Positions 2,864-34,370 of a stretch of 35,348 bases of DNA are shown here, one piece after another. Below the pieces are notes generated by a model. The model was not told the DNA's origin and ran no database searches. It saw only the letters and a list, made by a program, of their open reading frames with translations. The position numbers and the translations under genes are program-made. Each line of letters begins with the position of its first letter. Within the stretch, counting starts at the first letter, position 1. Source of the DNA: a virus (lineage: Duplodnaviria > Heunggongvirae > Uroviricota > Caudoviricetes); IMG/VR virus record IMGVR_UViG_2687453512_000002. One strand, written 5' to 3'.

Positions 2864-3247
2864 TCAGAATGGGATGGAATCGTCGTATTCAGGATTATTT
2901 TGATGATTGCTACTTTGCTGCTGTTGGCTGTTTCCTGAAGTTGCAAATCCAATCTTTGCATTCAGTAATTCAAGAGTGATTGATTGACCATTTTGCCCCT
3001 GATAAACATCAACCCTGATGTTTTCTCCGGTAATTTCTACAATGCCTCCTTCAACCAGAACGCTACGATAGTAATCCGCTTGCGCTCCCGGCTTGGCAAA
3101 TACAACGGCGCTGTAGTTTGTCCATTCTTTCTTTTTTGTCTGGCGATCGTAATACTGAACGCCAGCACGGATGTTGAATCCGATATTTTCCCCGCCCTGA
3201 AACTCTCTTGCGGGTTTGTTTAGTCTTACTGTAATCGAATGTGCCAT
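2864..3247 (-). CDS. ssb: Single-stranded DNA-binding protein (127 aa)
   Basis: OB-fold-like N-terminus, Gln/Gly-rich linker and acidic C-terminal tail ending YDDSIPF (canonical SSB tip); ATG overlaps erf stop (TAATG). Confidence 0.85.
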   Translation of the reverse strand: MAHSITVRLNKPAREFQGGENIGFNIRAGVQYYDRQTKKKEWTNYSAVVFAKPGAQADYYRSVLVEGGIVEITGENIRVDVYQGQNGQSITLELLNAKIGFATSGNSQQQQSSNHQNNPEYDDSIPF

Positions 3248-3852
3248 TAAGCAGTTGCCCCTTCTAATTCGTCTCGTCTGATGTTGTAAACGTCCTGCGC
3301 TTTGTGCTGCTCCGGCGTCCCTTCGAGCATCTTCCACGCTTTGGCGAACGCCTGTTTAAGCTCTTCTACGGTGTTTTTCTGCATTGCTGCGTCAGTGAAT
3401 GCTTTTAGAACCTGTTCAGGTGTAAGTGATGGTTTTGATTGCTTTGCTGCTGCGTTCTGCTGATGTTTATGCTCGTCTGTATCTGCATCTTTCGCATCAT
3501 CAATGCCGAACAAACCATTGAGGCAATACTTGCGTGCATAAGAGCTTGTAGCTCCCGTAACTTGTGCAGAATCCATTCCTTTCTTGCTTTCTTCCTCTCG
3601 TGCAAGAGCGGTTGCCGTATGACTGTTTTCGCCATCGGTAATAGTTGCCGTGGCTTTCACGTAATACCGATCACCAATCAACACAACTTCATCGCTGATT
3701 GATAAAAACAGACCGTTCAGTAACGGCTTAACGCCTTCAAGAATATCTTCGCAGCTTCTGTATTTATATTTGCCGAATGAGTTGTACTGATTCTTTGGCG
3801 CGTTCAGATTCTCCTGAATAGCTGCCAGTCTTGCGTAAAATTCTTTGCTCAT
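3247..3852 (-). CDS. erf: Erf-family single-strand annealing recombinase (about 201 aa)
   Basis: Translation from the internal ATG begins MSKEFYARLAAIQENLNAPKNQYNSFGKYKYRSCEDILEGVKPLL..., matching the P22 Erf N-terminus as remembered. Confidence 0.85.
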   Translation of the reverse strand: MSKEFYARLAAIQENLNAPKNQYNSFGKYKYRSCEDILEGVKPLLNGLFLSISDEVVLIGDRYYVKATATITDGENSHTATALAREEESKKGMDSAQVTGATSSYARKYCLNGLFGIDDAKDADTDEHKHQQNAAAKQSKPSLTPEQVLKAFTDAAMQKNTVEELKQAFAKAWKMLEGTPEQHKAQDVYNIRRDELEGATA

Positions 3853-3953
3853 ATGATTGCTCTCAGAATGGACACGGCCCAAGGAAATAACGCTGATTTA
3901 ATACTTCGACTCGGGACAAATTAAGGCATACCCGCATTCCTTCGCGGTCACCA

Positions 3954-4112
3954 TTATGGCGATACCAGAGAGCTTTCTGCGTGTACATGCGTCTCTGTAA
4001 CTTGCTCTCCTTCACTGTGGTTGCAAGTGACATGAATATCTCCTTCGTTACCGATTAATTCTTTTATCTGACGAATGAATTCTTCGTCTGACCAGTTATC
4101 CGTAAAACTCAT
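3954..4112 (-). CDS. Small protein in the Kil position (52 aa), start overlapping cIII stop
   Basis: ATGA overlap with the preceding cIII-like gene, as in lambda cIII/kil; assignment by position only. Confidence 0.4.
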   Translation of the reverse strand: MSFTDNWSDEEFIRQIKELIGNEGDIHVTCNHSEGEQVTETHVHAESSLVSP

Positions 4113-4279
4113 GGACGGCCTTGTTGTTTCAAAATATCCCAAAGCTTTTCGAGCAAGCTTTTCATTCTTGGTTGTTTAAAGTCTGCTCCGGTTAAAATGT
4201 TTTTTCGTGAATGCTGTACCGATAAAATCGGGTTGAAAGGGCGAACCGATGCCGCCCCTGCAATAGCGAACTGTTGCAT
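4109..4279 (-). CDS. cIII: CIII-like protein (FtsH/HflB inhibitor, 56 aa)
   Basis: Starts MQQFAIAG and ends LWDILKQQGRP, paralleling lambda CIII (MQYAIAG … LIDILNQPGVP); strong AAGGAG Shine-Dalgarno 6 nt before the ATG at 4279. Confidence 0.7.
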   Translation of the reverse strand: MQQFAIAGAASVRPFNPILSVQHSRKNILTGADFKQPRMKSLLEKLWDILKQQGRP

Positions 4280-4473
4280 AGGATGCTCCTTCTGTTTGAT
4301 TGCATAACGAAAACGCCTCGAGTGAAGCGTTATTGGTATGCATATAAAAAAGCCCTCACACTGGAGGGCAAAGAAGATTTCCAATAATCAGAACAAGTCG
4401 GCTCCTGTTTAGTTACGAGCGACATTGCTCCGTGTATTCACTCGTTGGAATGAATACACAGTGCTTATTCGTA

Positions 4474-4944
4474 CTAATAAAACACCCAGTTTTCTGTTTC
4501 TTGGTTGTGTCCAAAGTTATATTCAATACCTGGTGTTGATGTATCAATATTCTTCATCCCATCAACAAGAGTTGATACAACAGCCAAATCTTGTTTGATT
4601 CTCATCAAATGGTATTTCTTCCGGCGCAATAAACTTTCAATGGCAAGTTTCTTCGTCGGGAATGCAAAAGATCTTTCTGCATTTTTTGCTACTTTCTTAA
4701 TTGCATATCTATTTCTCCTTTGTTTCCATTCCTGTAACCACTGATTTGGTGCTGGTTTAAAATTAACAATCCAATGCGCAGGAACCAACCATGCATAATG
4801 CTCTGTCTGATGAAAAGCTATATATTGAAGTGCGAATATTTTGATTCCATCTTCTTCAACTGTCGCTTGGAATCTCCAGAAAACAGGCATTCCATCATGT
4901 TCAGTTTCTGATTCAGGAAAAGGTACGCTCCATGATTTTGTCAT
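4474..4944 (-). CDS. Hypothetical protein (156 aa), AT-rich moron-like gene between N and cIII
   Basis: Complete ORF in a region of visibly lower GC than flanking phage genes; occupies the ral/sieB-type accessory slot; no transmembrane segments. Confidence 0.65.
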   Translation of the reverse strand: MTKSWSVPFPESETEHDGMPVFWRFQATVEEDGIKIFALQYIAFHQTEHYAWLVPAHWIVNFKPAPNQWLQEWKQRRNRYAIKKVAKNAERSFAFPTKKLAIESLLRRKKYHLMRIKQDLAVVSTLVDGMKNIDTSTPGIEYNFGHNQETENWVFY

Positions 4945-4952
4945 ATATCACC

Positions 4953-5252
4953 TCAAATAAGTGGTTTGCTGCCTAATTTCATTTTCTGGCGACCAACACA
5001 AGTCACACCCATTTCACTGCGTGGCTTGCGGTAGTAAATACGATTCTGTTTACTCTCGACTTCATCTGCCTTCTTGCAGCGAAGGATTCCGAGTGATGCT
5101 GCTTTATCCGCTCTGACGCAACCAGAGAGCTTTAGCGCAATTTTTCGCGCCAGTCGCTGTTCTTGCATCGCCTGTTCACGTTGAGCCTGTCTGCGTGCTC
5201 TGCGGCGATTTCTGGCGTTATCGTCAGCCAGATATGTAATGACTACTGTCAT
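4953..5252 (-). CDS. N: Antitermination protein N-like (99 aa)
   Basis: Translation from ATG at 5252 (GGAGG Shine-Dalgarno): MTVVITYLADDNARNRRRARRQAQREQ... carries an arginine-rich motif like the boxB-binding N proteins; first gene downstream of pL/nutL. Confidence 0.75.
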   Translation of the reverse strand: MTVVITYLADDNARNRRRARRQAQREQAMQEQRLARKIALKLSGCVRADKAASLGILRCKKADEVESKQNRIYYRKPRSEMGVTCVGRQKMKLGSKPLI

Positions 5253-5565
5253 GTTGACCTCCGATGAAACAACTTTGGAATTGATAGTGATTGCAAAGTG
5301 GTTTCTGGCCCCTCGAACTGAGGGGCAGAAAGAGCATCTCGCCACCTAATAGGTCGATGCTCGGATCGAGAGATTTAATTAACCTCGGTTTTGAAGTTAT
5401 GCATTCACATAAATCCTCCTACCTCTTGTGCAGCTTTCTTGAATATGGTGGCGGCTGCATAACGCCTATGGAATTGACTTTGGCGGTGACGCGCCGGGTG
5501 CTTATCTTCCGGTTGCCGTCGTGCAGCTGCACTTCACGTCACCCCAAAGCCAACTACTCTTTGGT

Positions 5566-5607
5566 TCCCGCATTTCGGCGGGACAATCCCATCAATGTTA
5601 AAGAGCC
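5566..5607 (-). promoter_or_regulatory. nutL (boxA GCTCTTTAACA plus boxB hairpin TCCCGC-CGAAAT-GCGGGA)
   Basis: Minus-strand sequence reproduces almost exactly the boxA-boxB element found downstream of cro (6697..6740). Confidence 0.6.
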
Positions 5608-5644
5608 TGCCAATCTGTTCCGTTTGGCTTCCAGCGTCCTGCTG

Positions 5645-5706
5645 ATGGCTTAAATTTAAGATCTCTTTAATTAATGGTCAAGAGCATTTTTGAAGAAAAC
5701 TTAAAT
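5645..5706 (-). promoter_or_regulatory. pL promoter with overlapping P22-type operators (OL1 5654..5671, OL2 5689..5706)
   Basis: Minus strand -35 TTGACC, 17-nt spacer, -10 TAAATT; 18-bp sites ATTTAAG-ATCT-CTTTAAT and TTTGAAG-AAAA-CTTAAAT fit the ANTNAAG-N4-CTTNANT C2-operator pattern. Confidence 0.55.
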
Positions 5707-5749
5707 TTTCTTTCGTAACTTAAGTTTGGCTTTGATTTTTAAAGGAAAT

Positions 5750-5772
5750 AAAAAAAAAGGGGCGAATGCCCC
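5750..5772 (-). terminator. Rho-independent terminator downstream of the repressor gene
   Basis: Minus-strand hairpin GGGGC-ATTC-GCCCC followed by a 9-nt T run, immediately after the repressor stop codon. Confidence 0.7.
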
Positions 5773-5773
5773 C

Positions 5774-6424
5774 TTATGGAAGGTTTGCTAGTTTTGCATC
5801 GACAACTACGCCGATGATTTTGCAGTTTCCGTTGATCTCGATCATCGGATATTGTGGGTTAAGTGGTTTTAGAAACTTCCTGCCTGCATCAATAACTAAC
5901 TTCTTGAAAGTTGCCTCGTTTTCTCCTTCGAGCTTTGCAACTACCAGTTTCCCGTTACGCGGCTCTACTTCAGGATCGACGAGTATTATCATTCCTTCAG
6001 GGATACTGAGACCGGCCGGAGCCGTCATTGAGTCTCCCTTCACGTCCAACCAAAACGAATCTTCTGAACAGTCTACGGTTGTATCGTACCAGTTATCTAT
6101 TGCACGCTTATGATATGGTTCTACAGCTTCCATCCAGCATCCTGCGCTCACCCAGCTAATCAGAGGGTATGACCCTCTTGGATCATGCCTACTGTGATAG
6201 GCAATGTTTGAAAGACTTTCCTCTCCTTTCATCAGATAGTCAGGGGAACACTTCAACGCATTAGCCAGGGCGAGAAGATTCTCTCCATTTGGCTCTGTCT
6301 CAGAGCGTTCCCACTGAGATATGGCAACATTAGACACGCCGACCATCTTTCCAAGTGCGGCCTGCCTGATCTTGAGTTCTTTTCTCCGAGCGCGAATGCG
6401 CTCTCCCATCAATTGAGTTTTCAT
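5774..6424 (-). CDS. c2: Prophage repressor, P22 C2-type (HTH plus LexA-like S24 autocleavage domain, 216 aa)
   Basis: MKTQLMGERIRARRKELKIRQAALGKMVGVSNVAISQWER… with C-terminal GDSMTAPAGLSIPEGMIILVDPE…FKKL motif; near-identical to P22 C2 as remembered. Confidence 0.93.
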   Translation of the reverse strand: MKTQLMGERIRARRKELKIRQAALGKMVGVSNVAISQWERSETEPNGENLLALANALKCSPDYLMKGEESLSNIAYHSRHDPRGSYPLISWVSAGCWMEAVEPYHKRAIDNWYDTTVDCSEDSFWLDVKGDSMTAPAGLSIPEGMIILVDPEVEPRNGKLVVAKLEGENEATFKKLVIDAGRKFLKPLNPQYPMIEINGNCKIIGVVVDAKLANLP

Positions 6425-6490
6425 AGTTAAGACATCTTAAATAAACTTGACTTAAGATTCCTTTAGTGGATAATTTAAGTGTTCTTTAAT
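6425..6490. promoter_or_regulatory. OR operator region with divergent pRM/pR (OR3 6425..6442, OR2 6450..6467, OR1 6473..6490)
   Basis: Three 18-bp sites AGTTAAG-ACAT-CTTAAAT, ACTTAAG-ATTC-CTTTAGT, ATTTAAG-TGTT-CTTTAAT; TTGACT -35 and GATAAT -10 upstream of cro. Confidence 0.75.
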
Positions 6491-6504
6491 TTCGGAGCGA
6501 GTCT

Positions 6505-6690
6505 ATGTACAAGAAAGATGTTATCGACCACTTCGGAACCCAGCGTGCTGTAGCTAAAGCGTTAGGCATTAGCGACGCAGCAGTCTCTCAGTGGAAGGAA
6601 GTCATCCCAGAGAAAGACGCCTATCGACTGGAAGTCGTTACAGCTGGCGCCCTGAAGTATCAAGAAAGCGCTTACCGCAAAGCGGCATAA
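6505..6690 (+). CDS. cro: Cro repressor (P22-type, 61 aa)
   Basis: MYKKDVIDHFGTQRAVAKALGISDAAVSQWKEVIPEKDAYRLEVVTAGALKYQESAYRKAA, matching P22 Cro as remembered. Confidence 0.9.
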   Translation: MYKKDVIDHFGTQRAVAKALGISDAAVSQWKEVIPEKDAYRLEVVTAGALKYQESAYRKAA

Positions 6691-31133: not shown

Positions 31134-31308
31134 ACCAACCTCCTTAGTTTTGCGCAGGATACCAGATGATGTATAGGAGTGGGAGTAAAGTTAGTCGGTG
31201 ATAGAACGGTGGTTGCATAATGATATCACGTGACGTAAACTTATTGCGCATAGCGTGTATTCAATGGATGCATAGCTATTGATAATCTCCGATAAGAAGG
31301 AGGTTTGT

Positions 31309-31875
31309 ATGAGCAATGAGACTAATGGGATTGATGAAATGTTTAGCTTGAACGCTGCCAAAGCTGGAGTCGCAATAGGTTTGCTATTACAGCAAGCTTC
31401 TGCGTTCAGTTGTGAGGTGGTTGTTACTGATAACGTTCAGCACGCTTACCATCAATCCTCATTCAGCAGTGAACGGGCTAATGATGAGCTTCATGAGGCG
31501 GTGTCTTCGATTAAAGAATTGTCTCGAATGCTGAAATACGCTTATCGTGTTCTTGCAAACGCTACCGATGAGAATGTAGACAATGTGTTGTCTATCATTG
31601 AACCAGAAAAGTCTCGATTGATAGAGCATCAATTGAGAGGACTTGAAGGGGCAATGAAATCGGTATTCAAAGAAGCTTCTGCTGATTTTAAAGAGATCGC
31701 AAGAGATATCTATATCGTTGTTGCTGATGCCAGATCTGCCGTAACCAACCTGAATAGTCTTATTAAACAACGCTCATGTGTTCCGGTTGTTTTTGATAGT
31801 TCCGTAGATATGGCTGGTTTGCGTGCGCTTGCTGAGCACGGGACTCGTGTGTTTCACTCTGGTAACTTCCACTGA
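31309..31875 (+). CDS. Hypothetical protein (188 aa), first gene of a two-gene AT-rich operon; candidate partner/antitoxin of the downstream YafO-like protein
   Basis: ATG with AAGGAGG Shine-Dalgarno; helical protein with no recognised domain; 8-nt spacer to the next gene. Confidence 0.65.
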   Translation: MSNETNGIDEMFSLNAAKAGVAIGLLLQQASAFSCEVVVTDNVQHAYHQSSFSSERANDELHEAVSSIKELSRMLKYAYRVLANATDENVDNVLSIIEPEKSRLIEHQLRGLEGAMKSVFKEASADFKEIARDIYIVVADARSAVTNLNSLIKQRSCVPVVFDSSVDMAGLRALAEHGTRVFHSGNFH

Positions 31876-31883
31876 GGTAAAAC

Positions 31884-32333
31884 ATGCAAGTAACCGTGGA
31901 ATATAATCAGGATAGTTTTGACTATTTTTTCTCCCCGGTTTTTGTTGAGTTTCCTGATTTAAAACAAACACTTGTAGATGATTTTATCATCTACAAGTCT
32001 ACGGGAACGTTGCCCAGCTATTTTGGCAGAGACACCTCTTATCATCGACCTCCTGATATTGAAGATGCAGGCCTTATGCACCTTCATTTAGCAATTGGTG
32101 AAAATAAATTTGAGCCAATAAAAAATGGCACAGATATCAGCACACCGCAAAAGTTGCAGTGGCATAAAACATCCAATACCGCTCTCGTTTATGCACAAAA
32201 TCTTTTTGATGAGAACAGGTATTCATTGATTGCTCTTTTTCATCCTGTAGCTCACATGTCTGCTAACAATCATAATAGAATGAGAGTGTTAGCAGGGTAT
32301 GCGAGAGACTTTAGAAACACTATGTTTGACTAA
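31884..32333 (+). CDS. YafO-family toxin-like protein (149 aa)
   Basis: Motifs DDFIIYKSTGTLPSYFGRD, LMHLHLA, ALVYAQNLFDE, LIALFHP, NHNRMRVLAGYARDFR parallel the E. coli YafO sequence as remembered; about 37% GC. Confidence 0.65.
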   Translation: MQVTVEYNQDSFDYFFSPVFVEFPDLKQTLVDDFIIYKSTGTLPSYFGRDTSYHRPPDIEDAGLMHLHLAIGENKFEPIKNGTDISTPQKLQWHKTSNTALVYAQNLFDENRYSLIALFHPVAHMSANNHNRMRVLAGYARDFRNTMFD

Positions 32334-32334
32334 A

Positions 32335-32357
32335 CCCACCGTCAGGTGGGTTTTTTA
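32335..32357. terminator. Bidirectional terminator between convergent genes
   Basis: CCCACC-GTCA-GGTGGG hairpin followed by TTTTTT on the plus strand and flanked by an A-rich run on the other side. Confidence 0.7.
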
Positions 32358-32381
32358 TAAGGAGTAATCATGATTTACCCA

Positions 32382-32918
32382 TCAAACAACCCACCAGTTT
32401 GCCTGATTGGATGCCAGCCTTGCAGTTTTTATGGAATTAATTATGCCATGCTCAAGAGCCTTGTTAGCATCCAAAATGGTCGAGTCTGCTATCAGGGATG
32501 CCCACCTAATATGGGTTCCGATGTCGATATTGAACGTCTCAACGAAGCGATCAAGATCGTTATCGAGGCATTTCCCGTACTCTCTCAATCTGGCATGGTC
32601 GGCGGCTGGGGAGGCAAAGCACCATAATAGAGGATGTAACAGGAATCTTGATAATGGGTTTGCGAAACGTTCTGAGCCAGCCAGGAAAACGATATTAGCT
32701 ATGGATTCAACATTGCTTATGTTGTGAGTTCTAACGGTAACAGGGAGTGACTTAAGAAAGTTATACGCAGTAAAGCCAGCAGCAGTTTCCCCTCCCTGAC
32801 TTGATATATGGATATTTAATTCAGTTGCGCCTTGAGATAATGCGGTGAGACAGTGGTTCTGAAGTTGCCCAACAGTGGCAGTGTTAACAGGGCATAAGAA
32901 ATGAATTGTGTGCAGCAT
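32382..32918 (-). CDS. ClpP-fold (S14/S49-like) serine peptidase, 178 aa, translationally coupled to mnt
   Basis: IHISSQGGETAAGFTAYNFLKSLPVTVRTHNISNVESIANIVFLAGSERFANPLSRFLLHPL aligns with the ClpP core (…[42 protein letters not shown]…RVMIHQPL) with Ser and His in the catalytic positions; TAATG overlap with the mnt stop. Confidence 0.7.
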   Translation of the reverse strand: MLHTIHFLCPVNTATVGQLQNHCLTALSQGATELNIHISSQGGETAAGFTAYNFLKSLPVTVRTHNISNVESIANIVFLAGSERFANPLSRFLLHPLLWCFASPAADHARLREYGKCLDNDLDRFVETFNIDIGTHIRWASLIADSTILDANKALEHGIINSIKTARLASNQANWWVV

Positions 32919-33433: not shown

Positions 33434-33665
33434 TTCGCTTGGATGCAGTAGTCAAAGAGATTGCGATTACCATTTTAAGACCAAATTTTGTTCATGGCGA
33501 ATCATTTGGCACGAACGAAAAATTGAGAAGAGAAAGAGTATTCAGTGGCAAGCGCACGTTTTCAGAAGTGATGCTTGATGCGGCAAAGAAATCAAAACAG
33601 TGAAGCCCCAACTGCTGGAACAGTCAGGGCTTCGGTTGTCGGTAAATCCGTGGAGAAAAACCAAC

Positions 33666-34370
33666 ATGAATAGTATAGCAATTTTAGAAGCAGTGAACAC
33701 CTCTTACGTGCCATTCAACGGTCAGCAAATTATCACCGCCATGGCTGCCGGAGTTGCATATGTTGCGATGAAGCCAATCGTTGAAAACCTCGGAATGAGC
33801 TGGTCAACGCAGCAAACAAAACTCATGAAGCAGATTAGCAAATTCAACTGTGTTCATATGAACATGGTTGCCGCTGATGGTAAGCTTCGTAAGCTACTCT
33901 GCCTTCCTTTGAAGAAGTTAAATGGATGGCTGTTCAGCATCAACCCTGAGAAAGTTCGTGCTGACATCCGCGATAAACTGATTCAGTACCAGGAAGAATG
34001 CTTTACTGTGCTGCATGACTACTGGACAAAGGGAGAGGCAGCAAATGCACGGAAGAAAACATCTGTTGATGACAGGACTCCGCTTCGTGATGCTGTAAAT
34101 ATGCTAGTCAGCAAAAAGCATCTAATGTACCCAGAAGCTTATGCAATGATTCATCAGCGTTTCAATGTGGAAAGTATTGAAGAGCTTGATGCATCTCAGA
34201 TACCACAAGCAGTAGAGTACATCCACAGGGTAGTGCTTGAAGGTGAGTTCATCGGCAAACAAGAGAAGAAAACCAACGAGCTTTCTGCAAAAGAAGCAAA
34301 CAGCCTTGTATGGCTATGGGATTATGCCAACCGCTCACAGGCATTATTCCGCGAACTGTATCCGCGCTAA
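33666..34370 (+). CDS. ant: Antirepressor Ant (234 aa)
   Basis: Begins [20 protein letters not shown]… consistent with P22-type Ant; follows mnt-arc in the immI arrangement. Confidence 0.8.

Follow-up and report, generated by a model that had tools for sequence, protein, structure and literature searches.

The genes that lie beyond N in the pL operon of phage lambda are all non-essential, with ral becoming conditionally essential on hosts that carry type I restriction (PMC10695390). In the slot concerned here, lambda has ral and sieB, and HK620 has a putative sie gene. Another kind of accessory gene is the moron, which brings a promoter and a terminator of its own, forms a separate transcription unit, and is active in the repressed prophage; gp15 of phage HK97 is reportedly the classical example, said to have been described by Juhala et al. 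in 2000 and Cumby et al. in 2012. The present analysis concerns the 156-codon open reading frame (ORF) at 4474..4944, on the minus strand, of a 35,348-nucleotide caudoviricete sequence (IMG/VR record IMGVR_UViG_2687453512_000002), the whole of which is referred to as the window. This ORF is a true protein-coding gene under selection and belongs to the HK97 gp45 family (PHROG 1636); it is referred to below as gp45. It is part of a large set of interchangeable cargo genes that occupy a variable slot of the lambdoid pL operon, bounded by two conserved linkers, and the hairpin just downstream of it is a backbone element of lambda-like phages and not part of the gene.

The initial annotation of the window, made from the sequence alone, described an AT-rich 156-aa ORF between N and cIII, and the ORF call, its composition, and the PHROG matches of its neighbors agree with this description. 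The upstream neighbor is an N-like antiterminator gene of the phage 21 type (4953..5252, minus strand), which matches the N-like antiterminator family phrog_271 (E = 3e-36) and aligns with phage 21 N, and the next backbone gene downstream is cIII (4109..4279, minus strand; phrog_550, E = 1e-22). The gp45 ORF starts with the ATG at 4944, and its Shine–Dalgarno sequence, GAGGTG (4949..4954, minus strand), lies 4 nt upstream of this codon and overlaps the TGA stop codon of N (4953–4955), leaving a gap of 8 nt between the N stop and gp45. The GC content of the ORF is 36.7%, with 29.3% at third codon positions (GC3), compared with 47.8% GC for the whole window, and it falls at the 0.2 percentile among 471-bp stretches of the window, none of which is much lower; the genes that flank it have a GC content of 41–53% and a GC3 of 38–56%. 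The ORF is therefore atypical for the window, as had been suspected from the outset, and these values support the view that gp45 is compositionally foreign. A GC content below that of the surroundings was also found for 9 of the 10 gp45 homologs examined.

Over its full length (residues 1–156 against profile positions 1–156), the product matches phrog_1636, a family of unknown function (E = 1.1e-111). Proteins of the same length and 98–99% amino acid identity are encoded by HK97 (gp45; AAF31125.1/NP_037731.1), 933W (NP_049479.1), and phi24B (vb_24B_11c; ADN68407.1), and further relatives at 98–99% occur in Stx2 phage 86 (orf57), in BP-4795, and as an unannotated ORF of H-19B. In a tblastn comparison, HK97 Gp45 was 98.7% identical to the window ORF, and HK97 DNA is 98% identical over window positions 4286–5006, with the order N, Gp45, terminator, and cIII. 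The gene is already in public records as HK97 gene 45 with a putative terminator; the initial annotation was right that the protein is uncharacterized, but it missed that the ORF had been catalogued as HK97 gp45 and, under the label of a hypothetical protein, in 933W and phi24B. The gene is present in 87 phage records and, as an intact full-length ORF, in 563 of 5426 complete Escherichia coli genomes (∼10%), and Salmonella, Cronobacter, Pectobacterium, Brenneria, and Rosenbergiella prophages carry homologs with 55–85% identity. Across 22 homologs 55–99% identical to the query, 40 residues are invariant. The gene is taken to be real and under strong purifying selection because synonymous sites among its homologs are saturated while the ratio of non-synonymous to synonymous substitution (dN/dS) is 0.07–0.13 where calculable, with dN of 0.08–0.38.

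A scan of genome contigs for gp45 returned seven loci, and a profile search of 1.8 billion representative proteins recovered a wider family of ∼130–165 aa that is ∼17–27% identical to the query and consists of basic early proteins found in both temperate and virulent phages. Two apparent relatives from the representative search, P0059 (940 aa) and P0080 (444 aa), were rejected as repeat or low-complexity false positives, and Sf6 gp34 and HK620 HkaQ are unrelated to gp45, though they occupy the same slot. No annotated relative was found in a database of 5.8 billion proteins, where all relatives are labeled “hypothetical.” Similarly, no meaningful match was obtained in Pfam, NCBIfam, or PADLOC, nor among PDB sequences with phmmer and a profile search, and the best PADLOC match, to Cas1 (E = 0.018 over 45 residues), is noise; the earlier statement that the protein has no recognized domain is therefore upheld. 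The gp45 sequence was also absent from those parts of the supplements of a 196-gene accessory-gene screen that were available (PMC12373910).

The downstream boundary of the slot is a lambdoid boundary sequence of ∼125 bp (4341..4465), made up of a hairpin, a linker, and the tL2a terminator, which corresponds to “bsq4” of Sf6, where the record carries the labels “terminator; homology to phage lambda; tL2A” and “bsq4; boundary sequence.” The hairpin (4427..4464, minus strand) forms the upstream edge of this element and has a perfect core, GTGTATTCA-N10-TGAATACAC, at 4432..4459, exactly the 9-bp stem without a U-tract that was first noticed. As RNA on the transcribed minus strand it forms a ∼14-bp stem, including G·U pairs, with a CAAC loop. 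Nothing marks 4432–4459 as an intrinsic terminator, since three of the nine core pairs are G–C, GGAGCAAUG follows the stem, and the terminator scan is silent there. Perfect 9-bp stems with loops of 3–12 nt are expected ∼1.7 times per window in first-order Markov simulations, against five distinct ones in the window, and the hairpin is counted as real because it is conserved across phages and not because of within-window statistics.

The boundary element is 96–100% identical in 327 phage records, including those of lambda, 21, Sf6, SfI, HK620, HK106, and HK75, and HK97 and 933W also carry it at 96–100% identity; the identity to Sf6 is 98.3% over 4346–4464 and that to lambda is 97.6%. In lambda, the identical 28-nt hairpin lies at 34013–34040, 47 nt downstream of ral, and the same terminator stem lies at 33933–33950. 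In HK620, tL2A is annotated and a second hairpin is annotated as tL2B. In the window, tL2B and cIII follow directly after the element, as in HK97 and HK620, and no ea10 or gp17 cargo lies between. When positions 4340–4960 were used as a query, 2238 of the 5426 complete E. coli genomes matched (∼41%), with most of the query matched in 563; in the other genomes, the rows sampled matched only from 4340 to ∼4465, that is, the terminator, linker, and hairpin. The boundary element is therefore ∼4 times commoner than the gp45 gene. In alignments between phages with unlike cargo, homology starts within ∼15 nt upstream of the hairpin. The initial annotation had taken the hairpin for a processing or regulatory site of the gene rather than a terminator; it is indeed no terminator, but neither is it gene-specific, being part of the conserved bsq4/tL2a backbone, which is itself already in public records as the lambda tL2a and Sf6 bsq4 element.

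The opposite boundary is a right-hand linker (4945..5006) identified by alignment, which consists of the last ∼53 nt of the 21-type N gene and the ribosome-binding site and is 98.5% identical to the N–gp45 spacer of HK97 and 933W and 96% identical to the 3′ end of phage 21 N. The spacer lies at 3146–3207 in the HK97 locus and at 2439–2504 in the 933W locus. In HK97, 933W, and phi24B, gp45 occupies the same position as here, directly after N and before the tL2a terminator; however, the 21-type N of the window abuts gp45 with a gap of 8 nt, whereas HK97 and 933W have an H-19B-type N and a 58-nt spacer. Because the N genes of HK97 and 933W are of the H-19B type, this spacer is read as a relic of the 3′ end of a 21-type N, which either traveled with the cargo or acts as a recombination linker. 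The junction TTATTTGAGGTGATATATG recurs in phage 21 (OL657228), where it is followed by another ORF, unannotated and very acidic, that begins MEEEFEEFEEHP and runs from ∼1936 downwards, between N (1947–2246) and ral (1668–1868). The mosaic breakpoints fall at ∼4341–4369 and 5006.

Between these boundaries the cargo is highly variable. Of 104 IMG/VR contigs, 32 have Ral, 16 gp45, 11 a 207-aa family (phrog_1965), 9 an Sf6 gp34-like membrane protein, and 7 a 62-aa family immediately next to the boundary element on its upstream side; nine further unrelated families account for the remainder, and nine contigs have no ORF of at least 40 aa there. The slot therefore accommodates at least 14 unrelated families, of which Ral is the commonest and the only one characterized; the cargo families without a reference that were scanned against PHROGs all fell into groups of unknown function. 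Other families in the slot include phrog_10407, phrog_12139, phrog_2471, phrog_1578, and phrog_1372. Both the lambda comparison and the IMG/VR cargo bear out the placement of gp45 in a slot for ral/sieB-type accessory functions.

The order of elements on the minus strand is a pL-like promoter, N, gp45, the hairpin, an intrinsic terminator, a second terminator-like hairpin, and cIII. The putative promoter, TTGACC-17-TAAATT (5653..5681, minus strand), which would drive N and gp45, comes from a consensus scan only and lies between cI and N, in the same place as the annotated pL/OL of phage 21. Downstream of it, 56–74 nt before the N start, lies a G+C-rich hairpin, GCCCCTC-N5-GAGGGGC (5308–5326), that may serve the 21-type N protein as its nutL boxB. 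The first intrinsic terminator after pL is tL2a, GCCCTCCAGTGTGAGGGC then TTTTTTATAT (4342..4369, minus strand; stem 4369..4352 plus T6), which lies ∼60 nt past the 4432..4459 hairpin and is annotated as “terminator” in HK97 and phage 21 and as “tL2A” in Sf6 and HK620. The second terminator-like hairpin, AACGCTTCACTCGAGGCGTT then TTCG (4302..4331, minus strand), lies just upstream of cIII and corresponds, by scan and alignment, to HK620 tL2B. The only minus-strand terminator-like sites downstream of the pL-like promoter are 4369..4352 and 4331..4312, and scanning of the 350 bp upstream of gp45 found no sigma-70-like promoter, even at 8 of 12 consensus matches. Since gp45 has no promoter of its own in these scans, starts 8 nt from the N stop, and lies upstream of the first terminator, it would share the pL transcript of N and be expressed as an immediate-early gene, independently of antitermination, right after infection or induction. 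Because its ribosome-binding site is embedded in the end of N, its expression would be tied to the repressed pL, and the gene would be silent in a repressed prophage.

The gp45 product is predicted to be a soluble, basic protein of 18.6 kDa with an isoelectric point (pI) of 9.3, and it contains no transmembrane segment, in agreement with the initial annotation, the maximum Kyte–Doolittle mean over 19 residues being 0.56. An AlphaFold model built with a 72-sequence alignment reached a predicted local distance difference test score (pLDDT) of 96.2 and a predicted template modeling score of 0.83, compared with a pLDDT of 64 for a shallow alignment. The model has a long three-stranded antiparallel sheet (residues 19–55), two short helices, a short strand (83–86), and a 33-residue helix (98–130) followed by a conserved C-terminal tail. 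No solved structure matched this model, and in BFVD, a collection of predicted viral protein structures, only uncharacterized phage proteins did so, some of them from virulent phages; the structure search thus leaves the protein without a known fold and with uncharacterized phage proteins as its only matches. The model therefore suggests a soluble alpha/beta protein with a fold unseen among solved structures. The median pI of the family is 9.0, residues 61–131 of the query carry a net charge of +13, and the positions conserved family-wide are Gly, Ala, Thr, and Lys/Arg, with no catalytic constellation; K84, K87, R91, R107, K109, and R115 are the conserved basic residues. Given this basic central region, the probable mode of action of gp45 is the binding of a nucleic acid or of an acidic host protein and not catalysis. 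The second-best BFVD match is a 143-aa uncharacterized protein of Erwinia phage phiEa2809. A sequence relative of gp45 is gp069 of Pantoea phage LIET2, in which the loci concerned lie at 3025–3480 and 4866–5297, and LIET2 gp064 is annotated as similar to phiEa2809 NW77_134; if both phiEa2809 proteins are one, LIET2 may carry two paralogs of the gp45 fold.

The best overall explanation of these observations is that gp45 is a cargo gene expressed immediate-early from pL, that the hairpin after it belongs to the backbone, and that the protein has an accessory role in the lytic cycle; this combination comes close to an even chance of being correct without reaching it. As the conserved 5′ portion of the tL2a boundary module, the hairpin would most probably serve as a barrier of RNA structure, or as a processing point, where the message of the preceding cargo ends, and also as part of a homology patch for the exchange of cargo genes. 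With respect to function, it is tentatively proposed, in the knowledge that this may well prove wrong, that gp45 provides a dispensable lytic-cycle accessory function, in counter-defense or host takeover, as an alternative to Ral. An anti-restriction or anti-defense role is plausible from the position of the gene, with some support from its anticorrelation with ral. In the 87 IMG/VR contigs with enough upstream sequence, gp45 occurred in 17 and ral in 38, with both in none against ∼7.4 expected (Fisher p = 1.5e-5, uncorrected for relatedness among contigs). The two proteins are not homologous, since they remained apart in an all-against-all BLASTP comparison of the slot cargo and no ral PHROG appeared among the gp45 matches, and no homology or structural match was found that backs an anti-defense role. 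A broader form of the proposal is somewhat unlikely: that the gp45 family is a new class of immediate-early counter-defense or host-takeover proteins with a novel fold, binding nucleic acid or an acidic host factor and serving as an alternative to Ral in lambdoid phages, among them the main Shiga-toxin phages 933W, H-19B, and phi24B, with distant relatives taking the same part in virulent phages that infect Proteobacteria and Bacteroidota.

Several points weigh against a counter-defense or host-takeover role and the expression pattern proposed with it. The anticorrelation with ral may reflect only competition for one physical slot among contigs that are related, and phi367 and phi296 (GenBank) carry both genes in the order N…ral–gp45–tL2a, so that gp45 and ral are not strictly redundant. 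DefenseFinder reported only methyltransferases, Ral, and Gam as anti-defense genes in enterohemorrhagic E. coli (EHEC) phages (PMC12502783), and phi296, phi315, phi345, phi367, and phi419, GenBank records of the same EHEC phage series, carry gp45. A literature search under HK97 gp45, L0079, vb_24B_11c, and phrog_1636 turned up no paper on what the gene does. The binding mode read from the basic patch depends on a predicted model, and the promoter and terminator scans considered consensus sites only, which weak or non-sigma-70 promoters and Rho-dependent terminators could escape. Finally, in Brenneria and Pectobacterium prophages the homolog lies directly upstream of an excisionase-like gene and int, and not beside N, and the post-N position is therefore not a trait of the family.

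This last arrangement bears on the strongest alternative, although an unlikely one, in which gp45 is an internal regulator, that is, a small DNA- or RNA-binding protein for recombination, excision directionality, replication, or early transcription. Distant homologs always lie in the early-left operon of prophages, either among recombination genes or just upstream of xis-int, with RecT, YqaJ, SSB, RdgC, Erf, and xis-int as nearby genes, and others occur in early clusters of further phages. The Brenneria and Pectobacterium gene order, the occurrence of relatives in virulent phages, and the basic character of the family, with conserved Lys/Arg rather than catalytic-type residues, all fit such a regulator. 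However, gp45 is patchy on near-identical backbones, being present in 87 of ∼327 phage records and in 563 of the 2238 E. coli genomes that bear the boundary element, and its homologs have no conserved partner gene, with variable neighbors that include ParB-like, DpdA-like, and DNA methylase genes and many unknowns. A likeness to the AP2 and lambda Int arm-binding domains, noticed by eye around RSFAFPTKKLA, was not significant in hhalign. Nor does the window offer a convincing set of dispersed binding sites, since the hairpin arm GTGTATTCA as a half-site is weakly over-represented, with 16 matches at no more than one mismatch against ∼8 expected (a count reached by 1 of 100 shuffles) and one extra exact copy at 31255. 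As separate observations on these neighborhoods, a DNA cytosine methyltransferase gene (PF00145) occurs nearby in four or five of ∼12 homolog contexts, an anecdotal figure without a base rate, and the gene for a DpdA-like queuine tRNA-ribosyltransferase homolog adjoins one gp45 homolog; in this small sample, the methyltransferase and DpdA neighborhood may hint at a link to DNA modification or anti-restriction.

A different alternative concerns the hairpin and not the protein, namely that it is an RNA processing or stabilization site, either gene-specific, in the form first suggested, or as part of a 125-nt unit released as a 3′-UTR (untranslated region) small RNA, and this is quite unlikely. 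The region folds far better than shuffled sequences (z = −5.7; 0 of 200), and the way in which a 5′ hairpin is joined to a U6-tailed terminator by a single-stranded, A/U-rich linker resembles the build of Hfq-dependent small RNAs. The stem is also 100% conserved in an 87%-identical Salmonella variant despite a diverged linker, and in 120 IMG/VR contigs it is almost invariant, with loop changes in nine sequences and single stem changes in three. On the other hand, the element is not gene-specific, following ral in lambda and phage 21 and other cargo elsewhere, and no Rfam match at E ≤ 1 was found in 3800–6600 on either strand. Because the linker is nearly as conserved as the stem and no compensatory stem changes occur in the 120 contigs, RNA-level selection on the hairpin is possible but not demonstrated; with the whole element almost invariant, conservation of the stem is inseparable from DNA-level conservation or recent spread. 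The published surveys of prophage small RNAs that were consulted place their RNAs in the late region, and the AsxR, AgvB, and Pas family RNAs, which map there, are unrelated. Release of the 125-nt hairpin–linker–terminator module as a regulatory RNA could be a novelty, although a less likely one than a counter-defense class.

It is improbable that gp45 is a lysogen-expressed moron for superinfection exclusion or defense, like sieB, rexAB, or HK97 gp15, although the initial annotation had named it a candidate anti-restriction, anti-defense, or exclusion moron. Its deviant GC does fit, as low GC could mean horizontal acquisition, as in classical morons (PMC3594210), and the slot also hosts lambda sieB and the putative sie gene of HK620. 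In addition, a terminator-like hairpin with a T-run lies within ∼100 nt of the stop codon of each distant homolog in Brenneria, Pectobacterium, and Rosenbergiella. In the window, however, the terminator after gp45 is the backbone tL2a, also found in phages with other cargo, and, as the consensus scan gave no promoter within 350 bp upstream, gp45 is not a moron in the classical sense. Exclusion by the lysogen is an unlikely role because promoter-like sequences are absent upstream of the gene, the protein has no membrane segment, and its structural relatives include proteins of virulent phages, for which there is no lysogen to protect; the ribosome-binding site in the N end, the expected dependence on repressed pL, and the lack of a PADLOC match also speak against it. 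The weakest alternative, a decaying or selfish functionless passenger whose low GC marks a recent foreign origin, agrees with the patchy, seemingly dispensable spread and the lack of a known function but is scarcely credible and largely refuted by the selection data (dN/dS of 0.07–0.13); the ORF also has a confidently predicted fold and a strong ribosome-binding site, and its reading frame is preserved at full length across genera of the Enterobacterales, including 563 complete E. coli genomes.

Other features of the window and its nearest sequences were also recorded. Window positions 4340–4960 are 100% identical to 1527045–1527665 of NZ_CP033092.2, within a prophage of DSM 30083 (= ATCC 11775), the type strain of E. 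coli. Among deposited phages, the P22-like vB_EcoP-611R6 comes nearest over 4300–5300 (97.7%); its terminator differs, and a further ORF of 77 aa separates its gp45 from cIII. A second low-GC stretch (31279–32412, below 39% GC over 31842–32412) contains two ORFs of unknown function, 31279–31875 (phrog_8416) and 31884–32333 (phrog_1651), just upstream of an Ant-like anti-repressor gene (33600–34370); a perfect palindrome with a 13-bp stem lies inside the phrog_1651 ORF (31970–31998) and a 9-bp hairpin at its end (32332–32353). Perfect inverted repeats at 14299–14328 (13-bp stem) and 16189–16210 (9-bp stem), in the late-regulatory and lysis region, may be terminators.

The gp45 gene occurs in ∼10% of complete E. 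coli genomes and in reference Shiga-toxin phages, at what would be the first-expressed position after induction. If it disarms a host defense or reprograms the host, it would be relevant to the host range of toxin-converting phages and to the biology of their induction, and if the counter-defense proposal is true, a new fold would be added to the anti-defense repertoire. The slot census, with at least 14 cargo families between two conserved linkers, provides a target list for accessory-gene screens, and the slot is a natural site for engineering insertions. The net result for the locus is a correct description of a catalogued hypothetical gene and a backbone hairpin that had been misattributed to it, which makes gp45 a reasonable experimental target and not a surprise.

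Among the closest known systems is lambda Ral (NP_040622.1), which occupies the same slot as the last cargo before bsq4/tL2a in the pL operon and which lytic growth does not require. The sequences of the two proteins are unrelated, Ral being a Cys-rich protein of 66 aa and gp45 a basic protein of 156 aa, and the activity of Ral on type I restriction–modification is experimentally proven. Compared with the HK97 gp15 moron, gp45 is similarly compositionally deviant, dispensable, and present in some related phages while absent from others. However, gp15 is a membrane protein, whereas gp45 is predicted to be soluble, shows no promoter of its own, and uses the ribosome-binding-site region and the terminator of the phage backbone.

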